Below are positions 7,259 to 59,176 of a DNA stretch of 64,000 nucleotides, piece by piece; within the stretch, counting starts at the first letter, position 1, and each line of letters starts with the position of its first letter. The DNA comes from Octopus vulgaris (taxonomy: Eukaryota). A program made the position numbers and the translations under genes. The stretch spans positions 21,080,001-21,144,000 of the forward strand of contig OX597829.1 of NCBI GenBank assembly GCA_951406725.2, written 5' to 3'. Below the pieces are notes generated by a model. That model searched no databases and was not told the origin of the DNA. It saw only the letters and a program-made list of their open reading frames with translations.

Positions 7259-7730
7259 ATAACTTACAGAATAAGGGCAAAAGAAAAATTCTAATGCCAA
7301 ATATGCTGAAAAAAAGACAAAATTGTCAATAACCATTATAATTTATGCGTCTCGAAACAATCCGTTATTACTGTATTGGTCCCAATTTCGGGGTTAATTC
7401 ATAAGGTTAATCCATGGGTATGAGTAAGTATTTCATTTAAGTCTTACGTATTTATCGCTGAAGAGGGGAAAATTCTTATGAATTAACCCCAAAATTGGGA
7501 CCAATATGGTAATAACGGATTTTTTAGAAATTTCTATCAGTTTGTTTCAAGACGCATAAATTATAATGGTTATTGACAATTTTGTGTATTTTTTGGCATA
7601 TTTGGCATTAGAATTTTTCTTTTGCCCTTATTTTGTAAGTTATTTATAAATTTAACCTTTAAAGGTATTTTTTGATATGCCGGTCGTTGATAAAATTTTT
7701 TTTCGAAAAAAATTTTATCCTACATTAATT
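7259..7730. mobile_element. Fold-back element in (TA)n with degenerate hammerhead (7453-7506)
   Basis: Arms 7259-7405 and 7475-7643. CTGAAGA 7458-7464, stem II GGGG/CCCC, GAAA kept in the left-arm copy, cleavage triplet degenerate. Confidence 0.75.
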
Positions 7731-7917
7731 ATATATATATATACATATATAGGCGCAGGCATGGCTGTGTGGTTGAGAAGCTAGTCTAAGGTTCAGTTCT
7801 CCTGTGCAGCAACTTGGGCAAGTATCTTCTAAGTATCTTTGGGTTGACCAAAGTCTTGTAAGTGGATCTGGTAGATAGAAACTGAAAGAATCCCATTATA
7901 TATGTATGCATGTGTGT

Positions 7918-8257
7918 ATTGGGTCATCCCATAAATAATGTGGTTTTTTCAAATGCATGAACTAAAAGTCATAGGGGAATGGGATAAACTACTTGCATCA
8001 ACATGCTATAAAAGCAGGGAGTAATTTTACCTCGTACTTATTCTTAGTGCAAGCTTTGAAGAGTGTAGTTCGATTTTAAGTCATTTTTTCAAAGGCCATA
8101 ATGAAAGTGACAAAGGAGCATATTTGGCATATTTTGCTTTATGAATTCAATAAAGGCAACAATGCAACAGAAAATGCGAGGAATATTAATACAGTATATG
8201 GGGAATGGACAGTAAACATAAGCCAGTGTCAACAATGGTTCTAGAAATTCTGAGGTG
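7918..8257 (+). mobile_element. Mariner 5' fragment
   Basis: TA+TTGGGTCATCCCATAA end; ATG at 8101 gives MKVTKEHIWHILLYEFNKGNNATENARNINTVYG...CQQWF (mariner HTH). Confidence 0.8.
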
Positions 8258-10075
8258 AATGTCTTTGTACTGCAGAACTTTGATCCATAGCCTTCCAGTG
8301 CCTAACCTGCTTTCTGGGTTCTTGACATGATTTTTCTGTCAAGAGTACCATTGCTGGAGATAGTGCTCCTCAGGTATCTGAAAATAGTCGTGAGTCATTG
8401 ATGATAATGCATAGCTGTAGCAGGTTGCTGTTAGGTGAAATTTGAAGGAGGACTTCTATTACTGAGGCTGGTTGTAAAACTGAACTACCTGGATACAGTA
8501 ATGACTCTCTCAATGTTCTGAAGGTAGTTTTCTTGCTGTGCCATTTTGATATGGCCATCTACACAGAACACTTCTATGATGAGCTTCTAAAAGGTTTTTG
8601 TGTGGGCTGTAGGGCAACACAAGTTAAAAAGTGATTCATTCAGACAGTATTTGATGTCCAGATTTAGGTCTTTGATAGGATGTAGTTGGACTTGGGTGAA
8701 GAAGAGATTAAAAAGTACTGGTTCGAGTATACAGCCCTGTTTAACACCATTGAAAACGTCGAACTTCTCACCAGATTTATCAGCCAAGAGCATCTCTCCA
8801 GTCATGTTGACATAGAAGAGACTATGAAGTTGATAAATTTTGATGGGCAGCCCAACTTCTTGAGAATAATCCACGGAGTTTATCTGTTGACCATATCAAG
8901 TGCCTTTGTCCGATTGATGAAAACAAAATACATATTTATGCTCTGTTCTAGGCATTTGTCTAACTGTGAAGATCACCTCTATGGTATTACCTTCAGGTTG
9001 GAATTTGCATAGTGATTCAGGAAGACCTTTTTTTGGATAATGTTGAAATAAGTCTATTAAAGATGAGATGGGCTAGAATTTTGCAGGTGATGGTGTGGGA
9101 TGACGTCAGCAGCTGGGGAGCTGACCGGAACTTGGGACTGACCGGAAGAGGAAGGGGTAGGAGTGACGCGTGCGCAGGCAGGGCAAGATTGGACCTTTTT
9201 GATCGAGGCAGCCGAGGGAGTTAGATGTGTGAGCACGTTGTTAAGGTAGGGGAGAAGCAGCTGCTATTTCTAGTGTTCGGGTTGGGCTGCGTTGAAGGGT
9301 CCATTACCACTGAGAGGTCTCCATCAAGCGAAGAGAAGGTAGGTGTCCTTATTTCGAATCTCTCGCATACACCACAGATGGAGAGTAGGGAGATACCTTA
9401 GTAGTTCCTGCAGTCTGATCATGAGCTTTTGTTCTTATAAAGGGAAACTATTGCAGTAGACTGAAGATCAGGTGGCATTTCTCTCTGTTCTCAGATACTG
9501 ATCAGGACATCCTGGAATACTTTGAGGGACTCTTTGTCAAGAGTTTTGTACACTCTCTGGGAATGCCATCCTTCTGGATGCTTTACCACAATTCATCTGC
9601 TTTATGGGTGATTTGACCCCAGACAAGGAAGACAGTTCATTGAGGTGCTTGTGTCCTGAACTCTGAGAGATCTGATCAGGTGCTGACTGATCGACAGTGA
9701 AGGATTTGTCCACAAGTTAGCTGAAGTGTTCTTTCCATCTGTTGTTAATGCCCTGCTTGTCTTTGATGAGTGAGTATCCACCTGCCAATAACAGAGAGGC
9801 TATACTTGGTTTCGAGGGACCAAAGACAGACTCGATGGCATTGCAGAACTGCTTGATGCTATTTGTGTCAGAATAGATCTGAACCTCATCTGCCCTTTTA
9901 CTCCACCATGAATTGTGCTTTGTGCAGATTTCTCTTTGAGAGAGAGAGCCTGGAAGGACATGAATACGTCCTTCTTGCAGATGGAGCTCTGGTTATTCTA
10001 CCACTCTCTAAATATCTTGTTCTTCTTGGTTAGCAGATCATTGATAGTGGTATTGTTCTCATCAAACCAGGTTTT
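8258..10075 (-). mobile_element. RTE-clade LINE RT fragment (decayed)
   Basis: DCRNYxGISLLSI, GVKQGCILEPVLFNLFF, STISSNGTLD motifs on the minus strand. Confidence 0.85.
9094..9376. mobile_element. Solo LTR (283 bp) nested in the RTE fragment
   Basis: TGTGG...CCACA termini; 5-bp TSD GATGG (9089-9093 and 9377-9381); removal restores the RT peptide GISLLSITCKIL. Confidence 0.85.
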
Positions 10076-11174
10076 ATTATGATTGAGAAGAGGGCAAACA
10101 AATTGCCATGTTAAAAAACATTAAAATCATTTGAAGCATTTAAAATTTACATGCAATACCATAACAAAGAAGAAAAAAATATATAAAGACAAATTCTATT
10201 GTTTTTCTTTTGTGAATAAAATGAGGCCCCAAAATATTTTCCTAACATTTTGGTGCAAAGAAGTGAGTCAGTTTGAGAACCACTGCATTATATAACAAAG
10301 AGCAAGGACCCATTCCCTCAAAGCGAAATTATATAACACTCAAACTCTTCCATGGTAAGAGAAAGTAAAATGGGGTGAATGCTAATGCAGTGCTAGGAAT
10401 GCTTGTTATAACTGAAAAAGGGGGAGACAATTCACAATGTCTCCAAAAAAAATATTTGAAAGTTCTAAAACTTGTCTATAAATATGGTGAAATAACTGGC
10501 ACTCAGTTGATTACAACGACAAAGTTTCCATTTGATCTGATCAACAGAACAGCCTGCTTGGGAAATTAAAGTACAGGTGGCTGAACACTACACAGACATG
10601 TGTAGCCTTAATGTAGTTCTCAGGGAGATTCAGCATGATACACAATGTGACATGGCTGACCCTTTCAAATAAAGGTACTACTCATTTTTGCCAGCTGAAT
10701 GAACTTGAGCAATGTTAGATAAAGTGTATAGCTCAAGGACACAATGTGCTGCTGGAAATTGAACTTATGACCTTACAATTGTGAGCCTAACACCCTAACC
10801 CCTAAGTCACACGCTATGGTGAAAGAAGCATAGCTATATGGTTGATAACTGTATTTCACCTCATTAATAAAGGGGCAGGGAAAAAGTTACTTAAATATCT
10901 TGGTAGAGACTAGTCAGAAGTAAGTAGAAACAAATGTGGTGATGCATTCCATATTTTTGTAGACATGAATTGTTATAGCAACAACTGGATGAGAGAATGA
11001 TTGGAATTTGGAAAAAAAAAGAAGAAATATTTTCCCGTTTGGCTGTTATTTCTAGCATGTGAAATCTTTGACCTTTGTCATTTTGTCTGCTTGTTTGAAA
11101 AGCACCAACATTCTGGATAATTTTAAAATTGTCTGCTCATTTGCACATGCGTATATGTGTGCACACACACACAC

Positions 11175-58110: not shown

Positions 58111-58119
58111 ATATATATC

Positions 58120-58335
58120 GTCTGGCACCTGTGTCGGTGGCACATAAAAAACACCATCCGAGCGTGGCCGTCTGCCAGCCTCGTCTGGCACCTGTGTCGG
58201 TGGCACATAAAAAACACCATCCGAGCGTGGCCGTCTGCCAGCCTCGTCTGGCACCTGTGTCGGTGGCACATAAAAAACACCATCCGAGCATGGCCGTCTG
58301 CCAGCCTCGTCTGGCGTCTGTGTCGGTGGCACATA
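58120..58335 (+). repeat. 63-bp tandem repeat (~3.5 copies) within an RTE-tail repeat
   Basis: GTCTGGCACCTGTGTCGGTGGCACATAAAAAACACC unit recurs every 63 bp. Confidence 0.9.
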
Positions 58336-58499
58336 AAATCACCCACTACACTCTCGGAGTGGTTGGCGTTAGGAAGGGCATCCAGCTGTAGAAACACTGC
58401 CAGATCTGACTGGCCTGGTGCAGCCTTCGGGCTTGCCAGACCCCAGTTGAACCGTCCAACCCATGCTAGCATGGAAAGCGGATGTATGATGATGATGAT

Positions 58500-59176
58500 A
58501 TATAGATTCATATGAATATGGTACTTAAGTTGAGGTACCAGAATTTAGTATGGTATTATCCATACAATTTCAAAATAAGGTGATTAAATTCAAAATAAGC
58601 AACAAGGATATCCAGAGAATGCAATCATTTCATTACATCAATTTAAAATGTAGAGTAATTTTCAGCTACACAAAGACATAGAATTTAATTAAATTAGAAG
58701 GACACATTAGTATAATCTTACCTAAAATCTCCAAGAGGATAAGGAAATAGACAAAGAACATGTTGTACCAACAACATCATAGTTGTAACTGAAATTCTTT
58801 TTCAAGAAGACACTGCCTGCCACTGATTTTTCTGTTATTTAGTTTTAATTTATAGACTAATTTATCAAATTCTTTGTATATTTAAGGCTAAATTAAAACT
58901 AAATAACAGAAAAATCAGTGACAGGCAGTGACTTCTTGAAAAAGAATTTCAGTTGCAACTGTGATGTTGTTGGTAAAACATGTTCATTATCTCCTTATCC
59001 TCTTGGAGATTTTGGGCAAAATTATACTAATGTGTCCTAATTTAATTAAATTCTATGTCTTTGTGTGGCTGAAGATTGGTCTACATTTTAAATTGATGTA
59101 ATATTTGCATTGTTCAATTAAATGGAGTCGCATAAAACTGCATTACCTCTGGATATCCTTGTTGCTTATTTTGATT
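58500..59176. mobile_element. Long fold-back element (~260-bp arms) abutting a ~500-bp (TA)n tract
   Basis: Arms ~58591-58852 and 58889-59173; degenerate hammerhead TGTGTGG-CTGAAGA(59069-59075)...TAAAT-GGA-GTC-GCATA. Confidence 0.75.

Follow-up and report, generated by a model that had tools for sequence, protein, structure and literature searches.

Inverted repeats of the window

The window analysed here is a 64 kb stretch (contig OX597829.1, positions 21,080,001 to 21,144,000) of the 2.8-Gb, 227-contig Octopus vulgaris genome, and this work concerns the fold-back elements that accompany its TA tracts and that carry type I hammerhead ribozyme motifs or remnants of them. The exon at 40462-40791 (minus strand) is 100% identical to the end of an O. 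vulgaris protein named F-BAR and double SH3 domains protein 2-like, and the O. bimaculoides counterpart of its product is 95% identical. No FCHSD2-like exon other than this last coding exon was found in the window, so the elements above 40.8 kb probably lie within a long intron.

To detect fold-backs, we aligned the masked window locally with its own reverse complement, taking 60 shuffles as the reference. The original prediction, made from the sequence of the window, had described about ten long inverted repeats, and all 11 that it listed proved to be real. Ten of these (at 7.3, 13.2, 14.9, 16.6, 38.8, 45.7, 46.3, 52.7, 57.5 and 58.6 kb) gave scores of 155-655, the shuffle maximum being 34. 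The element at 34.5 kb, which has paired arms of only ~40 nt (judged by eye) and a family-derived tail, fell below the alignment cut-off and was supported by its family copies. General repeat finding in the window was dominated by TA tracts, and a dust-masked blastn of the window missed the 38.8 kb fold-back, which alignment to the reverse complement recovered. A twelfth palindrome, absent from the original list, at 29486-29624 (139 nt, 86%) was excluded as a family element; it is single-copy, belongs to no family and lacks a TA flank.

The genome was searched with each element, and 40 candidates were scored per family. Each of the 11 fold-backs derives from a different repeat family (A to K, our own labels) with a type I hammerhead at the matching place in its genomic copies, which bears out the prediction that the fold-backs are mostly unrelated in sequence. 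First-look candidates, which are not copy numbers, amounted to 1865 for family A, 2465 for B, 2691 for C, 2630 for D, 3007 for E, 332 for F, 728 for G, 3409 for H, 1443 for I, 368 for J and 93 for K.

Hammerhead motifs

A hammerhead motif or its remnant had been predicted in nearly all of the inverted repeats. This held when family copies were considered; in the window itself, only three sites (13874+, 45847+ and 57716-) passed the structural descriptor. The site at 7458+ has one core mismatch and is gained when the descriptor permits one mismatch, and the other seven window hammerheads are remnants, confirmed solely through family copies. Fourteen of 25 family D loci passed the hammerhead scan, while for families E, F, G, H, I, J and K the hammerhead was recognized by eye in natural copies, at the place of the window remnant. 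Stem III is mostly palindromic across the families (TCGA, AATT, GATC, AGCT, CG, TA), as had been noticed in the window. The family K core is the U3-A8 variant described by Cervera and de la Pena (2014, PMC4209133, in its available text), the family H core reads CUGUYGA, and most family E copies have an extra A before GAAA. In the 13.2 kb element the ribozyme motif lies in the adjoining tandem unit, outside the paired arms. The family B motif scored 32.2 bits against the Rfam model Hammerhead_1 (cut-off 34; E 8.5e-7), in a match over all 45 positions and the full model. An Rfam scan of the whole window gave miRNA-type hairpin matches, with no hammerhead among the 150 of 385 matches listed. Coordinates of the elements and their motifs are collected in Table 1.

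Table 1. Hammerhead-bearing elements of the window (window coordinates)
Feature	Position	Strand	Remarks
Family C insertion (464-nt unit)	7261..7730		Inverted arm 7261-7405, short end; direct arm 7411-7730, long end
Family C type I hammerhead	7452..7512	+	GAAA changed to AAAA in window copy; intact in most other listed copies
Family A insertion (507-nt unit)	13208..14103		Inverted arm 13208-13438 = unit 38-268
Family A full unit	13434-13940		Starts at predicted cleavage site; followed by partial unit 13941-14103 (1-164)
Family A hammerhead	13868..13945	+	Core intact, stem II long, stem III loop palindromic AATT
Family G head-to-head pair	14825..15090		Remnant hammerheads 14907-14966 (-) and 15007-15065 (+); left tail
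Family H copy	16480..16749	-	Remnant of minimal variant hammerhead at 16569-16605
Family H fold-back	16608-16749		TA at centre; arm-to-arm likeness 98.6%
Family I head-to-head pair	34456..34703		Short paired arms, left tail; remnant hammerhead 34579-34669 (+)
Family K fold-back	38771..39182		Old, 70-78% alike; no tail detected
Family K U3-A8 variant hammerhead remnants	38879-38917; 39032-39070	-; +	
Family B insertion (353-nt unit)	45674..46053		Copies 99% alike; inverted arm = unit 45-213, long end
Family B direct arm	within 45674..46053		Unit 311-353 plus 1-174, short end
Family B canonical type I hammerhead	45841..45885	+	Stem III loop TCGA
Second family H copy, non-inverted	46092..46290	-	Remnant hammerhead 46187-46223
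Family F head-to-head pair	46303..46720		Remnant hammerhead 46490-46573 (+), AGCT loop; right tail
Family J head-to-head pair	52475..52850		Truncated within stem II; left tail ~220 nt
Family J 3' half-cores	52749-52760; 52790-52801	-; +	
Family E pair	57508..58030		Microsatellite between halves; right tail
Family E hammerhead	57666-57721	-	One additional A ahead of GAAA
Family D head-to-head pair	58500..59176		Left tail
Family D hammerhead remnant	59063-59143	+	8-nt deletion in stem III

Repeat units and insertion geometry

Families A, B and C occur as single, tandem and inverted copies of units of 507, 353 and 464 nt, measured between successive predicted cleavage sites, and each tandem unit carries the type I hammerhead motif. 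Their units have a GC content of 31-42%, and the longest stop-free frame is 64-84 aa. A tblastn search for a reverse transcriptase (RT) plus GIY-YIG open reading frame (ORF), the coding content of a Penelope-like element (PLE), gave no match anywhere in the window; the window elements are not an autonomous PLE, and the predicted non-coding character of the repeats was upheld. In family B, for which 23 of 30 loci were mapped, a single arm can hold an array of up to about six units that are 99% identical. Tandem periods of 484-486 nt and 322 nt were found for families E and G, respectively, and family J gave a single repeat at 1083 nt. A unit-length tandem was not found for D, F, H, I or K, nor established for J, among 14-25 loci each.

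To describe the geometry of insertion, we chose 34 loci with two substantial opposite arms (11 of A, 13 of B and 10 of C, duplicates omitted). All 34 insertions were head-to-head in ribozyme sense, the arrangement proposed from the window. Another six loci, in which the inverted pieces were small or distant (L011, L015, L016, L062, L064 and L081), were left out of this set, and none of them looked tail-to-tail. In 33 of the 34 insertions a short end was paired with a longer outer end, the exception being one C locus with two short ends. The outer ends fell at unit positions 164/268 in A, 174/217 in B and about 136-148/185-232 in C, and each lies at a short TA-like stretch of the unit; most of these ends are continued by (TA)n. 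The inner junctions are freely variable, with no relation between the junction positions of the two arms, and 10 of the 13 family B junctions overlap by 1-4 nt.

The same asymmetry was seen in the window, where the unpaired one-sided tails of eight of nine elements tested recur in 7-27 family loci, against 0-3 matches for the opposite flank; for family K, no recurring tail was found among the family loci. When the first 100 listed matches of each of two motif patterns were read by eye, the same-family opposite-strand pairs no more than 700 nt apart were head-to-head in 16 of 16 cases, and the one tail-to-tail pair among those matches joined two different families. Among the 100 listed matches of a third pattern, a single pair was head-to-head; there were also two cases of tail-to-tail neighbours, of which one differed in its motif ends and the other was separated by 800 nt. 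The predicted association with TA tracts also extended to unselected inverted pairs (described below), of which 22 of 36 had TA at one or both ends, compared with 14% of random intervals.

Many family H copies (L200-L214) share one 5' start that immediately follows a TA or CA tract, which is partly query bias; these starts differ from the free 5' ends of families A-C.

Abundance in the genome

An unbiased sample of 399,900 bases was drawn as forty 10-kb stretches whose positions had been set beforehand. It contained 21 descriptor-passing motifs in 15 clusters, compared with 0-2 in ten block shuffles, so the motif frequency exceeds that of shuffled DNA. Extrapolation gives a genome total of ~140,000 motifs (roughly 85,000-220,000, Poisson error alone). 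Exact patterns run over the whole genome returned 16,622 sites against 1,481 for the reversed-pattern control, 39,424 against 1,379, and 21,879 against 0. The excess over controls is ~75,000 sites (small overlaps kept in), and the enrichment is 11- to 29-fold for two exact patterns. A very tight pattern gave 390 sites against 54; its count is low because most families fall outside it.

The same sample held 36 inverted pairs, nine of which were classed by eye as pairs of short interspersed nuclear elements (SINEs) or as miniature inverted-repeat transposable elements (MITEs), which leaves about one fold-back per 15 kb. With 11 fold-backs per 64 kb, the window is ~2.5 times richer than average, and the predicted density of one element per ~6 kb thus applies within the window but not as a genome average. 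Compared with a small library of hammerhead regions, 11 of the 36 pairs matched outward, two inward and 23 not at all, and both inward matches were SINE pairs matching a distant flank. The share of fold-backs due to hammerhead elements is therefore at least about 30%. In the same pairs, loose half-motifs gave counts of 18 and 18 in outward and of 16 and 17 in inward orientation, and they fail to discriminate between the two; for this reason, remnants were accepted on family evidence only.

Two stretches of the sample (L290:3901-4618 and L263:4821-5600) are MITE-like, with terminal inverted repeats, and the former presumably resembles Tc1/mariner ends.

A Penelope-like element as candidate helper

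A GIY-YIG search of the genome gave 6136 candidates, 150 of which were scored, and 16 of these lie within 781-aa open frames. Locus L134 holds an intact PLE, with a 781-aa RT that has a C-terminal GIY-YIG domain and DKG and CX4CXXC motifs. Its motif set (RT, DKG, CX2-5CXXC linker, C-terminal GIY-YIG) is the Neptune/Nematis pattern of published PLE descriptions, an assignment made from motifs. The terminal repeat carries a U3-A8 hammerhead, and the unit is 4713 nt long.

The geometry of this PLE is that of the mini-elements. Its copies stop at +73 or +113, in TA in either case, and all three inverted copies (L098, L136 and L138) pair the 73 with the 113 end. The 40-nt offset agrees with the 30-40 bp tail given for PLEs in the accessible literature, and the two-end rule is common to the L134 PLE and the non-coding families A, B and C. 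That non-coding retrozymes and an intact PLE share an insertion rule in one genome suggests a mechanistic tie without sequence homology.

Upstream of the main ORF of the L134 PLE, a 479-aa frame with no clear Pfam family overlaps it in another phase (L134:768-2204 and 2126-4468). The 3' untranslated region (UTR) is GC-richer, with repeated GATGACGTC and ATTGG boxes. A second PLE family (L144:4600-5280 and L147) has a hammerhead-like motif in its 3' UTR, with a CCGAAGA core and a GTAC loop (read by eye).

Proposed mechanism and alternative explanations

We consider it probable that the elements are insertions of at least 11 short non-coding families with hammerhead motifs (non-long-terminal-repeat, or non-LTR, retrozymes), arranged head-to-head between TA tracts and likely copied by the RT and GIY-YIG endonuclease of a Neptune-like PLE. 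Both ribozyme processing and mobilization by a PLE are steps that we infer. By analogy with published retrozymes, a read-through RNA would self-cleave to give a unit-length, probably circular RNA. The PLE enzyme would nick (TA)n, and the geometry suggests that each target strand would then prime one complementary DNA (cDNA), starting downstream of the ribozyme at either of two fixed TA-like sites. The two cDNAs would extend upstream, at times through several units, and the overlaps at the inner junctions point to joining of their far ends by 1-4 nt microhomology. Self-cleavage and circularization would explain the multi-unit arms. In three of the 11 family A insertions, the window copy among them, an arm starts within 2 nt of the predicted cleavage site, which hints weakly at cleaved templates. 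No family B insertion does so, and the idea that junctions generally lie at the cleavage site was dropped. Family B pieces also occur in contigs of three public runs that we guess to be RNA, which is no evidence on expression.

Several findings weigh against this interpretation. The Rfam gathering score was unreached in five of five family loci. Local folding of five ribozyme stretches was not significant (z -1.7 to +0.2), and their minimum-energy folds were not clean hammerheads. The core changes of families H and E may affect the predicted ribozyme, and only one of nine predicted retrozyme dimers cleaved in vitro in the available text of Li et al. (2026, 10.64898/2026.07.22.740005). As to the helper, comparison with the terminal repeats of 40 PLE loci, with 150 of the 6136 GIY-YIG candidates scored, revealed no sequence in common with any window family, the matches found being neighbouring insertions; the L134 PLE is therefore a candidate only. 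The original prediction had proposed looking for family copies joined to a PLE ORF; PLE coding matches were present in the vicinity of only three of 220 family loci (fetched flanks, not de-duplicated). Finally, family A is the only one of the three in which the arms of one insertion resemble each other more than those of different insertions (96.4% vs 90.8%), B and C showing no such closeness, and truncated PLE ends are a possible identity for families D, F, H, I, J and K, for which no unit-length tandem was established.

Two alternatives also involve PLEs. The same elements, with the same PLE enzyme, could fold back by self-priming on an antisense transcript, with no need for cleavage or RNA circles, as already proposed for head-to-head PLE junctions (Arkhipova 2013, PMC3846280, in its available text). 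The closeness of family A arms within insertions would fit such a step. However, the longer arm of the 13 family B insertions has the short end seven times and the long end six times, so neither arm is consistently a copy of the other. The unrelated junction positions of the two arms and, as a weak hint absent in B, the family A arms that start at the predicted cleavage site also speak against self-priming, which we regard as unlikely. Doubtful, yet to be taken seriously, is the proposal that D, F, H, I, J and K, which are the older families, represent 5'-truncated terminal repeats of autonomous PLE families. Truncation at the 5' end and inverted repeats are typical of PLEs (Craig 2021, PMC8557442, available text), and the missing unit-length tandems agree with it, in loci that were selected by their likeness to the truncated copies of the window. 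Against it, PLE coding lies within 1.5 kb in just one of 103 loci of these six families, and A, B, C, E and G form non-coding tandems.

Two further explanations fare worse. Inverted arms and TA flanks would also be expected of MITEs or of foldback DNA transposons that target TA, the hammerhead motif being incidental, and about two of the 36 unselected pairs look like true MITEs by eye. For the hammerhead families we give this almost no credence, given the free inner boundaries, unequal outer ends, one-armed copies and tandem units, and the enrichment of the motif over reversed-pattern controls; for A, B and C, MITE identity is refuted by the variable inner junctions and single-arm copies. It is also very improbable that the fold-backs formed in elements already inserted, through DNA template switching at TA palindromes, or that they are artefacts of long-read assembly. 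Such an origin suits the single-copy palindrome at 29.5 kb and the 16.6 kb fold-back, whose arms are 98.6% alike around a TA centre in a diverged copy and whose right arm stops before the ribozyme; the latter is probably a secondary inverted duplication. A local copy cannot, however, supply family sequence absent from the other arm, and the tails are family-derived. Opposite arms are also found joined in the contigs of another public run, where 14 such joints were listed.

Comparison with known systems

Judged by sequence, the window elements fit the published class of animal non-LTR retrozymes. As in the available accounts of that class (Cervera and de la Pena 2020, PMC7229834; Li et al. 2026), the units are non-coding, a few hundred nt long and low in GC, carry one type I hammerhead each, occur as monomers to multimers and co-occur with PLEs. 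Unlike the retrozymes published there, the octopus insertions frequently lie head-to-head, terminate in (TA)n and show two outer ends that are fixed and unequal. Neither "inverted" nor "microsatellite" appears as a word in the Cervera and de la Pena (2020) main text, and no description of the inverted, (TA)n two-end layout was found in the available text of Li et al. (2026). The octopus has ~27 exact sites per Mb and the axolotl, in the accessible account, ~4.5 per Mb (126,247 motifs, 28.2 Gb), counted with differing descriptors.

With endonuclease-positive (EN+) PLEs of the Neptune type, as far as described in the available text of Craig (2021) and Arkhipova (2013), the octopus elements share partial tandems, an adjacent inverted 5'-truncated copy, a one-sided tail, microsatellite targets and a hammerhead near the 3' end. 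Unlike EN+ PLEs, the octopus families lack an ORF, and their tails measure ~43 to ~220 nt, compared with the published 30-40 bp (40 nt in the octopus PLE). The minimal hammerheads of PLEs (Cervera and de la Pena 2014, available text) are similar in their palindromic stem III, the extra base after A9, the U3-A8 variant and the many families per genome, and opposite-strand hammerhead pairs 100-700 bp apart were noted there in Schistosoma. Many octopus families differ from these in having stem II inserts of 45-95 nt, and the CUGUYGA variant of family H was not found in that text. Inverted arms beside TA are common to MITEs and Foldback DNA transposons, from which the octopus elements differ in having unequal ends, tandem units and no fixed inner structure.

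The original prediction, which proved correct in the main, had held that the components were known and that the diversity, density and shared geometry might be undescribed for this lineage. The retrozyme class is indeed published, as is PLE geometry; the searchable, partly accessible literature yielded no account of the two together in non-coding retrozymes, of a two-end rule specific to each family or of the octopus scale. No paper on octopus hammerhead elements emerged from our literature search, most subscription journals being outside its coverage. An octopus repeat annotation (Bonar 2026, PMC13282606) counts PLEs, and its main text mentions neither ribozyme, hammerhead nor retrozyme.

PLEs were named a strong candidate for retrozyme mobility by Cervera and de la Pena (2020), in the text available; Li et al. 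(2026) add phylogeny, and the mechanism of movement is unresolved in the accessible part of that work. The need for an in vitro system of PLE integration has been stated (Craig 2021, available text). Young family B, with copies 99% alike, and the intact enzyme provide material for a direct test of PLE integration. According to the accessible text of Porath (2017), the octopus is exceptionally rich in near-perfect double-stranded RNA (dsRNA) and hyper-editing, from repeats that could not be annotated there, and the fold-backs are a concrete candidate source of such dsRNA. We tentatively speculate, as a possibility that falls short of being likely, that the octopus carries the densest hammerhead load so far described for an animal (~100,000 intact motifs in dozens of families), that the two-end rule directly records two priming events by a PLE enzyme on retrozyme RNA, and that the fold-backs, at about one per 15 kb, are a main source of the long near-perfect dsRNA behind A-to-I hyper-editing.

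Other features of the window

Two exons matching DFF40 (DNA fragmentation factor, PF09230) lie at 1922-2197 and 4124-4336 on the plus strand. A decayed RT fragment resembling long interspersed nuclear elements (LINEs) occupies 60875-61877, of which 60875-61180 matched RVT_1. We take 6262-6990, 43514-44526 and 55715-56065 to be decayed LINE-like RT fragments as well. A plus-strand frame at 27242-27730, beside TA tracts, has C2H2 zinc-finger matches and is possibly a retroelement end. Further repeats comprise a 63-nt tandem within a SINE-like repeat (58119-58338), a 102-nt duplication (43321-43526) and a 211-nt direct repeat with copies 870 nt apart (29219-30293).

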